Positions 12,005-18,736 of a stretch of 48,237 nt of DNA are shown piece after piece (position 1 is the first letter of the stretch; each line of letters starts with the position of its first letter). The stretch is taken from assembly GCA_964588395.1 (NCBI GenBank), contig CAZPPF010000004.1:1-48237 (forward strand). The letters run 5' to 3'. The notes below the pieces were generated by a model. The model was not told the DNA's origin. It made no database searches and was given only the letters and a program-made list of their open reading frames with translations. The translations under genes were made by a program, and so were the position numbers. This stretch comes from an uncultured Candidatus Saccharibacteria bacterium (GTDB lineage: Bacteria > Patescibacteriota > Saccharimonadia > Saccharimonadales > CAZPPF01).

Positions 12005-12079
<75 letters not shown>

Positions 12080-12276: not shown

Positions 12277-13566
12277 TTAGCCGCGAGTAAAACGACGACC
12301 AAGGAACAAGCGGTGAGCAACAGCCCCAGCAATAGTTACGGCAGTAAATATGCCGATAACATCGCCAGCACCAGTGTTCGGCAACTGACCCGTTGGGGTA
12401 GTTGGAGTGGTTGGGGTTACAGGTGGTGTAACGGGCTGACACTTGGCTGAATTAGCATTTACGCTAACTGTAGCTGTGTCAGAAGCTGTGGTGTTGTTTC
12501 CAGGTTGGAAAACTGTAGCTGTATTAACCATTGCGTTGTTTCCACAATTCAATTGGTCAGCAGCATCAATCGTAACCTTGAACTTAACGTAAGCAACTGC
12601 ACCAGGATTATAGCTCCCAATGTTGATGCCATTTTTAACCACATCATCACTTCCGGCACCTATTCCACTAGGATGGTTACCGTTTGTGATAGTAGTACTA
12701 CCAGCCACAATATGCTCGTGGGCAGGAAGTTGGTCACGTACAGAAACATCGTTTAAAACTGTGTTTCCAGTGTTCTTAACTGTAAGCAAGTAAGAAACCG
12801 TGTCTCCTGGCTTAGCAGTAATGTTTTTGCTCCAAGCGTCACCTGGGTGAGCTACCTGTTTGGTAATCGTAAGGTTAGGTGCTGGAACGTGAACTTTAAC
12901 TTTTACTGTAACGATACTGGTGTATTGGAAACAGCCCGGAATGATACCATTCGGAGACTGATAACCAATTAGCGCACCACCGTTTACAATGTCATCGCTT
13001 AGTTTCATGCCACTTGGTACAGCGTTTGTATAAGAAACGGCTGAGCCAGGAACATATGAAACGCTGAAGTTACTGCCACCGGCAAAGTCGACAGTGTCGG
13101 CTACTGTACCAGGTTGAGCGTTATCAGCAGAAATGTAAGCGTTGGCCCGCATAGCGGTACCGGTTGCAGTTGGCAAGAAAATTCGAACCTTAGTGTTTTT
13201 TGCAACACCAGGACCATCGAAATTTGTACCATTCAAGGTGTCGGAAGCGTTGTTGTGCACGTAAACGCGCATCAATACTTCTTCGCCATCTTTTACGTTA
13301 ACTTTATCTACAAATCCACCTTGAGTGGTGTTAGTAGCATCTTTGGCGTCAAAGAATGTTCGTTCGTCGCCATAGTTTGGGTTGTCTGTTATTGAGTCGA
13401 ACGTAACGTGGTCAGCAGGATGTGCGACCGTGTAAGTTGGACGATCTGGAGACCAGGCCAATGCTGAACCAACTATACCAAAGGTAAAGATGGTTGCGAG
13501 CATAAGAGCTAAGGTCTTCTTTGGAACCGGAGTTACCGAAAGAATCGCCTTGACTACATCTTTCAT
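12277..13566 (-). CDS. secreted surface protein with DUF11-like Ig domain and LPXTG sortase anchor
   Basis: Signal peptide (ALA-W); DUF11-like LTITKQV...PGDTVSYLLTVKNTG...DQLP; PT-rich linker; LPNTG + TM + RRFTRG; SD AGGAGG. Confidence 0.88.
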   Translation of the reverse strand: MKDVVKAILSVTPVPKKTLALMLATIFTFGIVGSALAWSPDRPTYTVAHPADHVTFDSITDNPNYGDERTFFDAKDATNTTQGGFVDKVNVKDGEEVLMRVYVHNNASDTLNGTNFDGPGVAKNTKVRIFLPTATGTAMRANAYISADNAQPGTVADTVDFAGGSNFSVSYVPGSAVSYTNAVPSGMKLSDDIVNGGALIGYQSPNGIIPGCFQYTSIVTVKVKVHVPAPNLTITKQVAHPGDAWSKNITAKPGDTVSYLLTVKNTGNTVLNDVSVRDQLPAHEHIVAGSTTITNGNHPSGIGAGSDDVVKNGINIGSYNPGAVAYVKFKVTIDAADQLNCGNNAMVNTATVFQPGNNTTASDTATVSVNANSAKCQPVTPPVTPTTPTTPTGQLPNTGAGDVIGIFTAVTIAGAVAHRLFLGRRFTRG

Positions 13567-13624
13567 ATAAACCTCCTAAGAAGTTATTTACATTAATAGA
13601 ACTTGTACTAACCGCTTGTCCTAA

Positions 13625-13637
13625 TTTTTAAAGAACA
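13625..13637 (-). promoter_or_regulatory. boxA-like antitermination motif in the LPXTG gene leader
   Basis: TGTTCTTTAAAAA, close to the rrn boxA consensus TGCTCTTTAACA. Confidence 0.55.
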
Positions 13638-13687
13638 TAGCTGCCAGAGGTTTCCAAAAAAGGAAGCCCACCTCACAGTTGAACGAT

Positions 13688-13716
13688 ATTTTAGCACAAG
13701 TATTTCTGTTTGTCAA
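13688..13716 (-). promoter_or_regulatory. sigma70 promoter for the LPXTG gene
   Basis: TTGACA (13716-13711), 17 nt spacer, TGC-TAAAAT (13693-13688). Confidence 0.8.
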
Positions 13717-13752
13717 TATTATGGTTATGTTTATTTTCTTGCTTGTTCCTAA

Positions 13753-14029
13753 TTGTTAATGAACTTCCAGGCCGAATCATTTCAAATCATAAGGGTGTAA
13801 CAAGGTGTGGAATGCGCGGGAGCGCTGAGCAGCTGTAAGCTACTACTATTCCACACCTGTTTGCGTGACTACGTTGGAGGAAGGAATCGCGTGGAGGCGA
13901 CTCAACTTCTTTTTTCCAACAAAACGCTGGTTTTTCTCGGCTTACCCGAGCGGCTTAACCAGCAACCTGCTGCCAAATTTAATAGTCGTATTGCTACGAC
14001 AAGCACTGGCAGATGCTTTATCCCCCCAT
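13753..14029 (-). ncRNA. structured 3' trailer of the GC-rich cassette (3' arms of long-range helices plus boxA-like motif)
   Basis: Hairpins GTCGTA-GCAA-TACGAC (13985-14000) and CTCGG-GTAAG-CCGAG; 11-bp stem 13803-13813/13848-13858; arms 13865-13875 and 13771-13792 complementary to the leader; GTTCATTAACAA at 13753-13764. Confidence 0.6.
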
Positions 14030-15055
14030 CTATGAGCTCGGCGGAGCTCCAGGGTCACCATCTGCTGGCGGATCCGGCGTCACTGGTGTGGGCGTCGGAG
14101 CCAGAGTTGTCGTCGTTGGAGACGGCGACGGCGCTGGTGCCTGAGTGGTGGTGGTTGGGCAGATTGCAAGCCCGCAAGGTGTGTCGTAGACAGGCGTAGC
14201 CGGTCCTGGATCCGTTCCCACCGGAGTGGTACCTGGTCCTTGTACACCTGACGGAACAGCCGGATTGACGTTGACGTCCTGGGTCGGAACCTTGGGCGGC
14301 AAACACATTGGGCTGTTCGGCGGCAGGCTTGAGTTGTACTGACACACCGGGGTGTTCGGCGGCGTCGTTGTCGACGTCGTTGTCGGCGTCCCTGGCGGGG
14401 AAGTCGACGGAGTTGGCTTGCCACCCACGGGAGTGGGGGGCGTGAGCTGCGGGTTACCGCAAGCCATCCGTACCACGGTCAGCGCTGTTGTTGGGACGTT
14501 GCCGTTCTTGGTGCAAGCAGACGGATTGATGAATACCCATCCGATGTCGCCCTTCTGGCTCTGTCTGGTGCCGGCGGCGACCGTCTTCCCATCGGCGAAC
14601 GAAGTGTTGCCACCCCACTCGCTTTCCACGAGGATTTGGAAACCCTCGATGTTGTTCGGGTCGACGATCTGATCCGCAGTAGCTCCAGGCTGAGCCTCGA
14701 GCAGGTGCTTCTTGACGGCTTGTGCTGCCGGCACGTCACTCTTCAAGAATGCCACGTAGGCGTCCTTGGTCGTGAGGGGCTTGTCGGCAAACTTGCCATC
14801 ACCAGCCTGCTTCGCCGCGGGAAGGTCAAGGTTGAACTTGTCCTCTCCGACAGTGAAGTCGCCAGCTTTGAAGCCCTGTTCCATCAGGAGGTTCGAGACC
14901 GCCTGCTGGTTGTTGCAGTCTGTCGTTGACAGCACGGCCTGGGCCGATTTGCCACCGCTGAACACGTCACCGATGCCCCCAGTTGCGAGGACGACGACGA
15001 CGAAGACAGCAAATGCAGCTGCCATCACACTCCAAATTACAGTGTGTCGCTTCAT
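14030..15055 (-). CDS. hypothetical secreted or membrane-anchored protein with Pro/Thr-rich C-terminus (GC-rich cassette gene 2)
   Basis: Start reassigned to ATG 15055 (MKRHTVIW) behind SD GGAGGTGA; N-terminal hydrophobic helix; several Cys; long P/T-rich tail; 341 aa. Confidence 0.8.
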   Translation of the reverse strand: MKRHTVIWSVMAAAFAVFVVVVLATGGIGDVFSGGKSAQAVLSTTDCNNQQAVSNLLMEQGFKAGDFTVGEDKFNLDLPAAKQAGDGKFADKPLTTKDAYVAFLKSDVPAAQAVKKHLLEAQPGATADQIVDPNNIEGFQILVESEWGGNTSFADGKTVAAGTRQSQKGDIGWVFINPSACTKNGNVPTTALTVVRMACGNPQLTPPTPVGGKPTPSTSPPGTPTTTSTTTPPNTPVCQYNSSLPPNSPMCLPPKVPTQDVNVNPAVPSGVQGPGTTPVGTDPGPATPVYDTPCGLAICPTTTTQAPAPSPSPTTTTLAPTPTPVTPDPPADGDPGAPPSS

Positions 15056-15169
15056 TACTATCACCTCCCTGGGGGTGTCTTGTCGTGTAAAGCGATTTCC
15101 TTGACTGAGTGAACGCAGAGACTGCAAGTCTCTCGTGCGGTTGCACGGCATGCAGCGCGTTCGGGCATG

Positions 15170-15874
15170 TCAACCGACGTCGGTCGTGACCTCGGTCTCA
15201 GTTGTTGTGTTGCAGTCGTCTGAGCAGAACAGCCACTTGCAGATGATCCACACGCCGTAGGCGATCAGGATGACCGGCAGGATGATGAACAGGGCCTGGA
15301 CGAACCAGTTGTTGCCCCATTCGGCATCTCCGTCAGCCCAGTTGAGCACGTCGTCGTAGTAGTTGCTCATGACCGCGAGGGTCACGATGGCTGCAACGGC
15401 GGCGGCGGCGACTGCAACGAAGGTGCAGACTCGTCGACTACTTGTGCTCACTCTCGTGCGCACTCGCTGACGGCGAGTAGGCGGAACTGTCGGATTCACT
15501 GGAAGCACGGCCGTCCGGTCCAGAGGCACCTCGTCTGCCACGGGGACAGGTTCGGCGTCCTGATCGAACACGGCAGCTTCGCCTGCAGGCGGGGTCAGGT
15601 CGACCTCGTCGTCAGACGCACGGGACTCGGGCTCGACTCCAGCAATCCGATTGGCCTGGGCCAAGTCGTGCTCGAGTTCTGCACTCACGTCCTCGTGTTG
15701 CTGCTGAGCTGCACGAATCAGTGCTGCGCCGCTCACGATTCCTTCTTCCAGCACCGCATCGGCACTGGCTCGGGCCGCGAGAAGACGCACACGCTCTTCC
15801 TCGTTCGCAAGACGCAGCTCTCGTGCCTTGGCAATGCCTTCCTCGATGAGCTGGTCGATGTGTTCTGTACTCAT
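15170..15874 (-). CDS. hypothetical membrane protein, coiled-coil/acidic N-terminus and two C-terminal TM helices (GC-rich cassette gene 1)
   Basis: Start reassigned to ATG 15874 (MSTEHIDQ) behind SD GGAGGAGG; 234 aa. Confidence 0.75.
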   Translation of the reverse strand: MSTEHIDQLIEEGIAKARELRLANEEERVRLLAARASADAVLEEGIVSGAALIRAAQQQHEDVSAELEHDLAQANRIAGVEPESRASDDEVDLTPPAGEAAVFDQDAEPVPVADEVPLDRTAVLPVNPTVPPTRRQRVRTRVSTSSRRVCTFVAVAAAAVAAIVTLAVMSNYYDDVLNWADGDAEWGNNWFVQALFIILPVILIAYGVWIICKWLFCSDDCNTTTETEVTTDVG

Positions 15875-16460
15875 TTCTGCTCCTCCTCCCGGTTGGGGGG
15901 TGGAACTGGCGCGGTCCTGGGACCTTGCCAGGCTGTGGGCTATCCCACAACCAAGTCGATTGAGATCGTTTTGCGCCGAAGCAACAAGTCGATGTCTCCA
16001 TCGACTTGTTGTTCGTCCACCCCCATTGGGTGTACTGACACAGCATTGAACCAAAGAGGTTTCTCAGGCTTAATGCTGTGCCCGTAACAAAAACGAAATC
16101 AAAATTAGTGTGTTGAATTTAACGTAGTCACATACTGCCTTGGTAAGCGGAGACGTACTCTGTGAACAGAGGTGCCTCAACGCACGTCAAGTGCAGACCG
16201 CCTACTACTAGCCTTGGGGTACTAACCCCAGAATAACAGGGGTAGCTAGTATTAGATGGCCTGCACTTTTAGTGCCTTACCTACAGCAGTTATGAACTGA
16301 AATGATTCGACTTGTTAATGTACCCGTTGCCTATGAATTTGCCGGTTAACAGATGCAAGAGTCTAAAAAAGCAGCGAGGCGGTGGCCTGGTGCTGCTTCA
16401 TGATCCACCTCTGTTAATGTCCGGCTACGGGGTTATCCCTCACACCCATAAGCTAGGATG
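15875..16460 (-). ncRNA. long (about 585 nt) structured 5' leader / candidate ncRNA
   Basis: Successive stems: 13-bp perfect stem with GAGA loop (15982-16011), GCACAGCATT/AATGCTGTGT stem, long stem 16189-16268, terminator-like hairpin 16365-16398; boxA-like motifs at 16312-16323 and 16411-16422. No credible ORF. Confidence 0.65.
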
Positions 16461-16465
16461 ATCAC

Positions 16466-16494
16466 ATTCTACTACAAAACTACTGTTTTGTCAA
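16466..16494 (-). promoter_or_regulatory. near-consensus sigma70 promoter of the GC-rich cassette
   Basis: TTGACA (16494-16489), 17 nt spacer, TAGAAT (16471-16466). Confidence 0.85.
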
Positions 16495-16522
16495 TAAGCT
16501 TTACCATAATAGTTGTGTAAGC

Positions 16523-18736
16523 TCAAGTTTTTTTAACAAGAGGCTTTGCTTCCTCTGTAGGCTTTGCTAAATGTTCGGGTACTTGCAACTGGCTTTTGGG
16601 AAAACTAAAACCAAAAGTACTGCCTTTGCCTTCCTCGCTATGAAAGATAACTGCTCCACCTTGGGCCACAATGACTTTCTTGGCCATAAATAGACCCAGT
16701 CCGGTACCATCTGGGCGAGCGTGCTGAGCATTACCAGCCCGATAGAACTTGGTAAACAAATGGTGCTGCGCGTCTTTGGGAACCCCAATGCCATCGTCCG
16801 TAACCGTAAACTCTACACTTGTGCCTTTGTCCTCTAGACCAATACGAATATGCCCCCGATTTGCGCCACTCTGCGTGTAGTAGATGGCGTTGTCGGCAAA
16901 GTTCATAATGACCTGACGGGTTTTGGTTTCATCCAGCATGAGCATGGGGAAATCTTTGGGCTTGTCGTAGGTCAGCTCTAGGCCGCGACCTTTTGCCGTC
17001 TCGGTCAATTGGGAAAGTTCGGTCTCGATAACTTCTGCCAGCTGAGTTGGCTTGCGCTCAATTACAAACTTGCCGGTGCGCAGTCTAGACACGTTCAAAA
17101 GGTCCGCAATCAGGTACACCATCCGCTGAGAGCTTACAAACGCCTGATTCAACAGTTTTTGCTGGTTACCGTTAACTTTGCCGGCATCGCCTTCTAACAC
17201 CATGCTGATGTAGCCTTTGACGCTCGTAAGTGGCGTACGCAGCTGGTGTGAGGCCATACTAATGAACTCGTCCTTGGCTTCGTCGAGCGCACGTAGCTTG
17301 TCATTGGTTTGCCGCAACTTGCGCGTAGCAGTATCAACCTTTTCTTGCAGGGTTATGTTGAAGCTTTCGATCTCTTCAAACCGTAGCGCATTTTGAACAG
17401 CGATCGCCAACTCGCTACCCACAATTTCTAAAAATCGAATATCTTGCGTGGTATAGATATTACCGCTCTGTTTGTGACCAAATAGTAGATAGCCAACCAC
17501 GCCTTTTTGAGTGACAAGGCGAACGCTCACTCCTACATTATATTTTTCGAGTGTTTTTTTCTTTTCACCACCTTCAAGTTCGTCGGATACCAAAACGTTT
17601 TTGTTAAACAAACTAACTTCCATGGGGCCAATGGTAATTTCCGGCTCTTTATACTGTTCTCGCCGATAAATTGAGGAATTATCAACCACAATAAAACTGC
17701 CCTTGATGACTTTTAGGTTATCTCCCAAAATCCTAAGACACGACATCATGATGACCTGAAGAGAAATTTGAGTTGTTAGCACTTCGCTGATTTCATTCAG
17801 AACAGCTTGTTCATCATAGGCGTCCCGGTAAAACAACCTGTTGGTCAAACGGTCAAAGAATTGTTTGATAGGTTGGAACGAAAATGCTAGGAAAACACCC
17901 AAAACAACGTATGTGAGCTGCTTGACCCAGCTTTGACTGAAGGAAGCTTGGGTAAAGATGAGTGATGATAACCCAAACAGTAAGGCGCCGTACATTAGAC
18001 CAAGTGTCACGAGCAGCAGAATATAGGCTACCGAACGTGCTACCACAGCCCGGATGTCAAATAATCTCTGGGCGACAATTGCGTAGGTTATAAAAATTGC
18101 AAAGAGTAAGGTGTAGAATGGACTAACTCGAACAAAGAGTGTCGTTTTGGCACTAAGTGTAATGGCAAAGTTTGTCAGGGGTACAATAACCCACAAAACA
18201 ATTGATCCCAGTACTAGCAAACGTAGTTGTTCCTTCTGTTGGCCCCTTGCACGATGGAACTTACCTATCAGGGCTCTGAGCCCAAACGCGATAGTGAGAA
18301 CAGAATTAATAACAAAAAATATGATGACCGGGCCAGGATTGGGGTTGGCCGTACCATTTTTGATAGTGATAGATTGAAACAAAAAGGGAGACTGAGTAAG
18401 TGCAATGACAAACAGCGAGAAAGGAATCATCAACTTTTGTTTGGATGAAAGCTTGGAAATCGGCGTATTAGGGTAGGTTTCGGCGAAAAGATAAAACAAT
18501 GTGTTTTGGATAACGACAAAAGACAGTACTGTTCTGATGGCATATATCGTAGAAGCGTTTTGTGCGACAGATATAGCTAAATAATTAGTGAATGCCCAAG
18601 CTGCCAGTGCAAGTGTCAGGAACATGAAAATCAGGTTTGTGGTGTTGCCTCTTCTTCGGTAGTAGACGCTCAGAGCAATTGCTATTTGGGAAAATACCGC
18701 TAAAATTACCAGTATAGTAAACATCTTGAACTTCAT
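16523..18736 (-). CDS. sensor histidine kinase with N-terminal multi-TM (HisKA_7TM-like) and GAF-like domains
   Basis: About 9 TM segments, GAF-like region (LAIAVQNA), H-box ASHQLRTPL, N-box NFADNAIYY, DDGIG, GTGLGL. Confidence 0.92.
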   Translation of the reverse strand: MKFKMFTILVILAVFSQIAIALSVYYRRRGNTTNLIFMFLTLALAAWAFTNYLAISVAQNASTIYAIRTVLSFVVIQNTLFYLFAETYPNTPISKLSSKQKLMIPFSLFVIALTQSPFLFQSITIKNGTANPNPGPVIIFFVINSVLTIAFGLRALIGKFHRARGQQKEQLRLLVLGSIVLWVIVPLTNFAITLSAKTTLFVRVSPFYTLLFAIFITYAIVAQRLFDIRAVVARSVAYILLLVTLGLMYGALLFGLSSLIFTQASFSQSWVKQLTYVVLGVFLAFSFQPIKQFFDRLTNRLFYRDAYDEQAVLNEISEVLTTQISLQVIMMSCLRILGDNLKVIKGSFIVVDNSSIYRREQYKEPEITIGPMEVSLFNKNVLVSDELEGGEKKKTLEKYNVGVSVRLVTQKGVVGYLLFGHKQSGNIYTTQDIRFLEIVGSELAIAVQNALRFEEIESFNITLQEKVDTATRKLRQTNDKLRALDEAKDEFISMASHQLRTPLTSVKGYISMVLEGDAGKVNGNQQKLLNQAFVSSQRMVYLIADLLNVSRLRTGKFVIERKPTQLAEVIETELSQLTETAKGRGLELTYDKPKDFPMLMLDETKTRQVIMNFADNAIYYTQSGANRGHIRIGLEDKGTSVEFTVTDDGIGVPKDAQHHLFTKFYRAGNAQHARPDGTGLGLFMAKKVIVAQGGAVIFHSEEGKGSTFGFSFPKSQLQVPEHLAKPTEEAKPLVKKT

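Follow-up and report, generated by a model that had tools for sequence, protein, structure and literature searches.

A GC-rich pair of genes at a conserved position in Saccharibacteria: a probable native envelope operon within a predicted RNA frame

What can hold a coding region at 0.6-0.87 guanine plus cytosine at the third codon base (GC3) in a background of 0.43? This question is raised by two adjoining genes of an uncultured Candidatus Saccharibacteria bacterium (assembly GCA_964588395.1), here called gene A (15170..15874, minus strand) and gene B (14030..15055, minus strand). The window, i.e. the whole stretch of 48,237 nucleotides (nt) that was analysed, is the entire contig CAZPPF010000004.1 (C4) of a genome of 912,676 bp in 78 contigs, which is 93.7% complete and has a guanine plus cytosine (GC) content of 0.459. 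Compositional islands are routinely read as recent horizontal gene transfers (HGTs), and an earlier note, made from the letters of the window, had offered two explanations for this one: a horizontal acquisition, or a codon usage kept host-like because the RNA of these genes is translated in the host. We favour, with moderate confidence, a different reading. The two genes probably form a native envelope operon restricted to this lineage, the GC-richness of which is old and maintained and comes neither from a recent transfer from the host nor from an assembly error; the replacement of modules, combined with a GC-biased process, is the cause that we prefer. The island is a feature of conserved position in a whole order, set in a frame of native composition, and this locus is a warning for the inference of HGT in reduced genomes.

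Composition of the island and integrity of the assembly

The GC content of the successive 500-nt bins across 14001-16000 is 0.634, 0.596, 0.574 and 0.622, against 0.414 in one flanking bin (13501-14000), 0.460 in the other (16001-16500) and 0.39-0.52 in the remainder of the window. The earlier note had described two open reading frames (ORFs) much more GC-rich than their neighbours, and these bins bear it out (0.57-0.63 vs. 0.41-0.46). At the scale of the genome, the 1-kb segment at C4:14001 ranks first with a GC content of 0.615 (3377 segments; mean 0.458, standard deviation 0.031), and the scan revealed only one comparable island (C8:10750-12750). Gene A (GC 0.614) has a GC3 of 0.692 (z 4.0) and gene B (GC 0.61) a GC3 of 0.674 (z 3.7), relative to 705 ORFs of 150 amino acids (aa) or longer, taken as a proxy set (mean 0.435, standard deviation 0.064). 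The GC excess is therefore not explained by amino-acid composition alone. Moreover, it is regional, since noncoding segments within the island share it: the 181 nt before gene A (proximal 5' untranslated region (UTR), 15875..16055, minus strand) and the spacer between the two genes (15056..15169, minus strand) have a GC content of 0.564 and 0.561, respectively, whereas the intergenic-like gaps of the genome have a mean of 0.423 (standard deviation 0.064). Translational selection for GC-ending codons was ruled out as a cause, as a GC3 of 0.32-0.53 was measured for the ribosomal-protein cluster genes and for a partial EF-Tu gene; GC-ending codons are thus not those preferred by highly expressed genes in this genome.

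An assembly chimera, for which the earlier note had advised a check, was also ruled out, because independent contigs bridge both junctions. Parts of the stretch were present in contigs from four runs of four studies, at low and similar depth. The X4 contigs (records 3 and 6) cover 13908-14142 and 15762-16432 without a single mismatch and cross both compositional boundaries; X4 belongs to the same study as the possible source runs, its own sample not being flagged as a possible source. In addition, a metagenome contig that is 99-100% identical to the window (L073) spans gene B through the entire gene of the DUF11 protein that follows it, and the same type of junction was found in more than 20 other genomes, including the single-contig genome G119.

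The same composition was found in most of the relatives. Among the 24 homologues of gene B with a called ORF (a count that includes both the window and the near-identical L073), 18 have a GC3 of 0.58-0.87, one a GC3 of 0.46 and five a GC3 of 0.26-0.33. The DUF11 genes that adjoin gene B have a GC3 of 0.32-0.50, except that of G243, which is richer (0.63). We also took an unbiased sample, consisting of the 6 kb downstream of the histidine kinase gene that borders the locus, in 20 other genomes of the same order (one of these stretches, of 259 nt, was uninformative). A sharp GC-rich island was found in G063, G048 and G014; G057 was ambiguous and the remainder carried no island. The three islands have the same architecture as ours, i.e. 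a coiled-coil and transmembrane (TM) protein followed by a signal-bearing protein with a Pro/Thr tail, and none of their genes aligned to those of the window or matched Pfam.

Position, distribution and content of the island

A profile of gene B matched 31 of the 401 genomes of the order, that of the window included (26 of the 323 high-quality genomes; 25 of the 255 genera). Of the 29 loci returned, 26 have a DUF11 homologue directly downstream. Upstream, the seven-transmembrane (7TM) kinase has a homologue in 13 of the 20 loci that were enlarged, and a pyruvate kinase gene often comes after DUF11. In metagenomes, gene B is followed by DUF11 in six of eight loci, the other two being flank-less contigs of 1.4 and 2.0 kb. 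A phylum-wide sample of 400 genomes gave nine further gene B matches. The five best phylum-wide loci belong to another order or class, and DUF11 stands downstream in four of them. Every gene B match with readable flanks thus far retrieved is in a genome of the window's phylum or in the same gene context. The earlier note had proposed to look at the distribution of homologues, and the outcome is that relatives occur only in this phylum or in metagenome contigs with the same context and are mostly still GC-rich, which argues against a recent transfer.

Beyond the order, the adjacency of gene B and DUF11 is seen at L096-L099 (in G637, G528, G440 and G487). In G440, G487 and G528, a ribosomal protein L7/L12 gene, identified by eye, replaces the kinase upstream. 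G413 is GC-rich in the island only and gave no DUF11 match.

The neighbourhood of the island points in the same direction as far as mobility is concerned. As the earlier note had stated, no integrase or transposase is present, and no recombinase either, among the neighbouring genes, which encode the kinase, the DUF11 protein, a pyruvate kinase and a nitroreductase-like protein. The DUF11 gene stands between the island and a tRNA-Glu gene (12005-12079). The closest relative of gene B beyond the species of the window, in a search of 5.8 billion proteins, is 49% identical. A recently acquired island, from host Actinobacteria or from a phage, was thus rejected: its deviant composition is present, yet no close donor gene pair was found in this search, and there is no mobility gene and no border formed by a tRNA gene or an attachment (att) site. 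Like classical genomic islands, this locus has sharp compositional borders, a patchy distribution and genes of unknown function; unlike them, it lacks an integrase, a transposase and an adjacent tRNA junction, occupies the same slot in at least 12 families, has no donor that we could find and lies in a frame of native composition.

What changes between relatives is the content of the slot. Between G250 and G119, which belong to one genus, the nucleotide identity is 88% in the leader, 79% in gene A and the start of gene B, 71% in the tail of gene B and 77% in DUF11. The central domain of gene B could not be aligned at all over some 650 nt, where the proteins show two unrelated domains. In another genus, the payload of G161 has almost nothing in common with that of G037 or G132, with flanks that are about 70% identical. 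Whole modules are therefore replaced among relatives, as the swap of the central domain within one genus shows, and the replacements are GC-rich as well. Of the horizontal acquisition envisaged in the earlier note, the simple form, from a host or a phage, did not stand, and a milder form, the exchange of cassette parts among relatives illustrated by G250 and G119, did. Silent donor copies for gene conversion were ruled out, as the island matches only itself in the genome (blastn). The same lack of a second copy is relevant to a diversity-generating retroelement, which would need a reverse transcriptase and a template repeat close to its variable target.

In our preferred explanation, relatives would recurrently exchange parts of the cassette by recombination, and a GC-biased process, either biased gene conversion or selection, would act alongside this exchange to make the region GC-rich. 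Replacement islands such as O-antigen, capsule and Borrelia lipoprotein loci are exchanged by homologous recombination via conserved flanks, and are usually AT-rich or neutral. The present locus is like them in its fixed position, its conserved flanks, its highly divergent or non-homologous payload, the replacement of a domain within a genus and its probable envelope products; it is unlike them in being strongly GC-rich and set in a conserved RNA frame.

The same data bear on an import from a GC-rich donor, which would be either old and partly ameliorated or repeated, the donor being either a GC-rich relative within the phylum or a host from the Actinobacteria. Three members of the phylum that are GC-rich throughout their genomes (G440, G487 and G528) do carry gene B beside DUF11, at a locus GC content of about 0.61-0.63. 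However, the gene B of the window aligns by tblastn to just one of the five loci outside the order, with about 25% identity, and no donor closer than the 49% mentioned above exists among the proteins searched. The patchy distribution would suit an import, as would two other GC-rich islands of the genome (one pyrF/pyrE-like, the other with a DGQHR and a helix-turn-helix (HTH) protein), which look like ordinary acquisitions; but the same slot and AT-rich frame recur in at least 12 families, the adjoining DUF11 gene has a native composition, and an import old enough for divergence between families should by now have lost its foreign composition through amelioration. We consider such an import improbable.

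Promoter, leader and long-range helix

The frame that surrounds the two genes shows the same order in an alignment of 16 loci: a promoter, a leader of about 135 nt, a nearly invariant block of 35 nt and a long hairpin. The promoter (16466..16494, minus strand) is of sigma-70 type, TTGACA-17-TAGAAT, with 11 of 12 consensus matches, and its hexamers are kept in the 16 rows of the alignment; the promoter mentioned in the earlier note is thus confirmed as a match to the consensus. The leader (16326..16460, minus strand) is predicted to be closed by a covarying helix, P1, and to contain small hairpins as well as a terminator-like hairpin with a U-run (about 16371-16400). The block that follows (16291..16325, minus strand) is the most conserved part and carries a boxA-like TTAACAA motif (a resemblance only), then the core of the 5' arm of a long-range helix (16297-16314). 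Just inside this arm lies the long hairpin (16185..16275, minus strand), with a minimum free energy of -42 kcal/mol (z -5.14; 0 of 200 shuffles as good) and arms that are conserved or covarying. The 3' arm (13768..13785, minus strand), complementary to 16297-16314, lies about 245 nt past the stop codon of gene B, and the predicted duplex reaches -36.5 kcal/mol. Between families, the DNA of the frame is better conserved than the enclosed genes: relative to G021, identity is 71% over 274 and 370 nt of the frame, vs. 26% for the gene B protein.

RNAalifold run on a MAFFT alignment of the leader gave almost no consensus (3 pairs). P1, which is seen in single-sequence folds, was therefore tested by explicit pair counting. 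In this test, 81% of the cells are paired, vs. 21-48% after a shift of one side by 1-3 columns; double changes occur in 8 of 10 pairs, and none of 500 shuffles reaches the covariation score. Between 13400 and 16700, no Rfam family matched at E up to 1, and in the whole window the only matches were transfer RNAs (tRNAs) and a transfer-messenger RNA (tmRNA). The leader is thus a candidate new structured RNA, shared by at least 13 loci from several families. In the window only, it also contains a site resembling a Shine-Dalgarno (SD) sequence, followed by a 12-codon ORF that enters the terminator-like hairpin; this ORF is not kept in the other loci.

In almost all the island loci, a sequence located shortly past gene B is the reverse complement of the second half of the 35-nt block. 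The duplexes predicted between the arms in 12 loci range from -35 to -56 kcal/mol and span 1.7-2.7 kb. Among the 216 cells formed by the 18-nt core of the helix in these 12 loci, 194 are Watson-Crick pairs, 17 are G.U pairs in the sense RNA, 3 are A.C and 2 are other combinations, with double changes at several columns; this count omits G133 (out of register because of an indel) and L073 (a duplicate of the window), and the loci are related, so that the cells should be read as counts rather than as independent trials. That G.U outnumbers A.C points to pairing in the sense transcript rather than to a DNA repeat. Between the 3' arm, which it directly follows, and the promoter-like site of DUF11 lies a second TTAACAA-type motif (13750-13766, minus strand), and several other loci, among them G063 and L078, carry one at the same place.

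The two arms could instead be inverted repeats bounding a piece of DNA that inverts or moves, i.e. a phase-variation switch or the remnant of a transposon. Repeats of about 18-22 bp in inverted orientation do flank a segment of 2.5 kb, with the promoter outside. However, besides the G.U bias of the mismatches, which fits RNA pairing, the island has the same orientation as DUF11 in all the loci examined (20 enlarged loci, 8 metagenome loci and 3 islands of the unbiased sample), and no recombinase gene is found among its neighbours. We regard this as very unlikely.

The SD sites of genes A and B, GGAGGAGG and GGAGGTGA, are legible directly in the sequence, and their strength, claimed in the earlier note, is confirmed. 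Their occlusion by C-rich hairpins, claimed together with it, held for one gene out of two. At the start of gene A (96 nt), the SD site lies inside a C-rich hairpin of the proximal 5' UTR, which would sequester it, with a fold far better than that of shuffled sequences (z -4.39; 0 of 200 shuffles as good). At the start of gene B, the SD site of which lies in the spacer between the genes, the fold is unremarkable (z -0.52; 57 of 200 shuffles as good).

How is the frame related to the composition? Profiles of the frame match the GC-rich loci and all three islands of the unbiased sample, vs. none of the 16 other stretches (E up to 0.01), and have no further match elsewhere in the genome of the window. 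Frame and high GC co-occur without exception in the loci examined: all the frame-bearing homologues with a GC3 value are at 0.58 or above, and G343, G376 and G258, which have a GC3 of 0.33 or less and a full upstream context, have neither frame nor gene A. In G376 and G258, the two in which both ends could be measured, the slot is merely about 1.2-1.3 kb long.

Because of this co-occurrence in every locus examined, we rank selection at the RNA level second among the explanations of the GC-richness. Frame and GC-rich interior would then be a single device, a packaged messenger RNA (mRNA) sealed at its ends in the manner of ribosomal RNA (rRNA), with a composition selected for folding, stability, nuclease resistance or handling, and decaying once the frame is lost. 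The GC-richness of the noncoding spacers within the loop and the strong fold around the SD site of gene A are in line with it, and, in AT-rich genomes, the classic examples of GC-rich islands are structural RNAs with a processing stalk around them. However, the proteins are clearly coding and conserved, the leader of G037 has an ordinary GC content although it lies inside the loop, and the same association would arise if frame and payload simply travelled together. This selection therefore seems to us a possible but rather unlikely cause. If it were true, the fast-evolving surface proteins of these tiny epibionts would be encoded by a long-lived or specially routed mRNA, and the GC-richness would not be the relic of a transfer. 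In our ranking, the exchange of cassette parts with a GC bias comes first, then selection on the RNA, then an old import; we give little probability to an inversion switch or to translation in the host.

Translation in the host, the second explanation of the earlier note, would require that the end-sealed RNA be delivered to a high-GC host, with a codon usage tuned to that host. The GC-rich codon usage, the strength of the SD sites and the predicted sealing of the RNA would all suit such a delivery. Yet five homologues have a GC3 of 0.33 or less, of which the three with a full upstream context have no frame, and gene B is linked across classes to a sortase-type DUF11 protein of native composition. 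In addition, the apparent lipoprotein-type signals of several relatives suggest processing in the producer's own envelope, and a GC3 of 0.67-0.69 is below the values typical of high-GC Actinobacteria. To our knowledge, there is no RNA export route of the kind needed. Translation in the host is thus barely credible; of the premise that codon usage has been retained, what stands is the phenomenon only, i.e. a GC-rich codon usage kept over long times.

For the preferred reading, an operon native to this lineage, we propose that transcription starts from its own conserved promoter and runs through the conserved structured leader, and that the 18-bp helix between leader and 3' UTR seals both coding regions in one large loop. 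This sealing helix may control the processing or the stability of the mRNA; leader and helix would most simply be a device of post-transcriptional control or stabilisation. In rRNA operons, a boxA-bearing leader precedes a processing stalk, which is formed by the sequences flanking the 16S and 23S genes and is cut by RNase III. The present locus is similar in its promoter, its leader with a TTAACAA-type motif and its predicted long-range helix, which extends over about 1.7-2.7 kb and encloses a GC-rich body; the genes for RNase III and NusB are also present in this genome. It differs in that the enclosed body encodes two proteins and that the RNA-binding domain of Rho was not found. Profiles of the block and of the leader match nothing within about 0.9 kb on either side of the 16S genes of G119, G161 and G133 (E up to 10; no 16S gene is assembled in the genome of the window). 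The frame is therefore an analogue of the rRNA stalk and not a copy of it. The 16S genes of these three relatives bear long complementary flanks of their own. In G119 (L091), the Rfam match to the 16S gene begins about 100 nt downstream of the usual 5'-end sequence of that gene, which reflects either an insertion near the 5' end or an error of coordinate conversion. A model in which Rho and boxA antitermination would account for the frame was dropped, because the domain Rho_RNA_bind was not found in this 93.7%-complete genome and because the rRNA leaders give no support to the boxA label.

Interactions between the 5' and 3' UTRs of a bacterial mRNA also occur in icaR of Staphylococcus aureus. 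For hbs of Bacillus subtilis, one report ties the pairing of leader and 3' UTR to ribonuclease access and stability (PMC5737220). As in these two cases, the leader is predicted here to pair with the 3' UTR of the same mRNA. Unlike them, the helix spans a two-gene operon of 2.5 kb, covaries across many families and accompanies a compositional island, and its function is predicted. The locus thus offers a clear covarying example of a helix that would seal a whole two-gene mRNA, together with the candidate new leader RNA. A limited full-text search of the literature found no description of it.

Gene products and other features of the genome

Gene A encodes a protein of 234 aa with a coiled-coil-like N-terminus, a Pro/acidic linker and a C-terminal hairpin of two TM segments (2-TM) with a conserved loop motif. 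The 341-aa product of gene B has a signal anchor (N-terminal helix, residues 5-25), an alpha/beta domain (about 45-210) predicted with a predicted local distance difference test (pLDDT) score >90, and a Pro/Thr-rich tail, in which a conserved Cys/Pro motif is the best-conserved stretch of the family. Translations and predicted structures thus agree with the earlier description of an exported Pro/Thr-rich protein and a 2-TM protein. In several relatives of gene B, a lipoprotein-type signal is apparent by eye at the N-terminus.

The two genes had also been called orphans. This is right insofar as neither has a family match in Pfam, NCBIfam or PHROGs, and wrong insofar as both have unnamed relatives. 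For gene A, there are 11 among 1.84 billion representatives, some of which match the N-terminal part only and others the TM module only. Sequence profiles of the PDB gave nothing beyond coiled-coil noise for genes A and B. A structure search with Foldseek returned zero matches at E up to 0.001, the best VIA-align Z in the structure search was 3.6, and a search of Protein Atlas returned zero usable matches; such an absence of family or fold matches does not demonstrate a new fold. The computation of a complex between the two proteins gave a score of 0.01, which is uninformative either way on binding.

From the topology of the products and the identity of their neighbours, we infer a function in the envelope, at the surface of the cell. 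The product of gene A would be inserted in the membrane through its 2-TM hairpin, with the coiled-coil part in the cytoplasm, and that of gene B would be a signal-anchored secreted protein, with an alpha/beta domain for which no solved relative was detected and a Pro/Thr-rich tail. The operon most likely works with the DUF11 protein at the cell surface. The DUF11 gene (12277..13566, minus strand; identified with Pfam), the conserved partner of gene B, has a GC3 of 0.38, and an LPNTG-type sorting signal can be read at the C-terminus of its translation. It would have its own promoter, as a site TTGACA-17-TAAAAT with a TG (13688..13716, minus strand) is separate from the cassette promoter. A new pair of envelope-protein families beside a sortase-type, adhesin-like gene in epibiotic bacteria provides candidates for host contact. 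Cultured relatives are now genetically manipulable, which makes the features of this locus testable there.

Several points weigh against the reading of a native operon with an old and maintained GC-richness. Gene B is detectable in only about 8% of the genomes of the order, so that spread instead of loss is possible. The short flank-less matches (e.g. L074 and L075) may include an actinobacterial relative. Scans of species genomes with peptide patterns matched 53 and 48 stretches, none of which was confirmed, the patterns being too narrow to inform on other phyla. A test of congruence on normalised bit scores was noisy, with a rho of 0.38 between DUF11 and gene B and no significant correlation of the kinase with either; it is unreliable owing to the paralogy of the kinase. 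The helix and the leader are computational predictions, as is the surface function proposed from topology and neighbourhood. Finally, the GC bias is the cause that we favour as a proposal, and it would be unusual for conversion to reach a GC3 of 0.6-0.87 in a background of 0.43.

The kinase in question (HisKA_7TM, GAF, HisKA and HATPase_c domains, identified with Pfam; 16523..18736, minus strand) forms the upstream edge of the slot. A paralogue at C32:5904-8090 is 55% identical to the copy of the window, and the best kinase matches of the relatives are mostly at 40-51%; the orthology of the kinase across genomes is therefore uncertain.

Two other GC-rich islands were observed in this genome. 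The one on C8 (C8:10946-12897, i.e. L089:1947-3898) has a GC content of 0.57-0.62 and a GC3 of up to 0.77. It encodes a protein of 359 aa with weak DGQHR and GmrSD_N-like matches and an HTH protein of 244 aa, a pair that looks like an acquired defence-type pair. It is flanked by two genes with similar N-terminal regions, one of which appears sigma-70-like by eye. The other island, on C7 (C7:6542-8299, i.e. L090:1543-3300), has a GC content of 0.55-0.60 and a GC3 of 0.62-0.66, and encodes pyrF (subfamily-2 type) and an orotate phosphoribosyltransferase-like protein; an ordinary acquisition of pyrimidine genes is plausible. In the window itself, a tmRNA gene is located at the start of the contig (1-411, minus strand; 59 bits), and genes for tRNA-Glu, tRNA-Lys and tRNA-Arg are located at 12005, 30425 and 37126, respectively.

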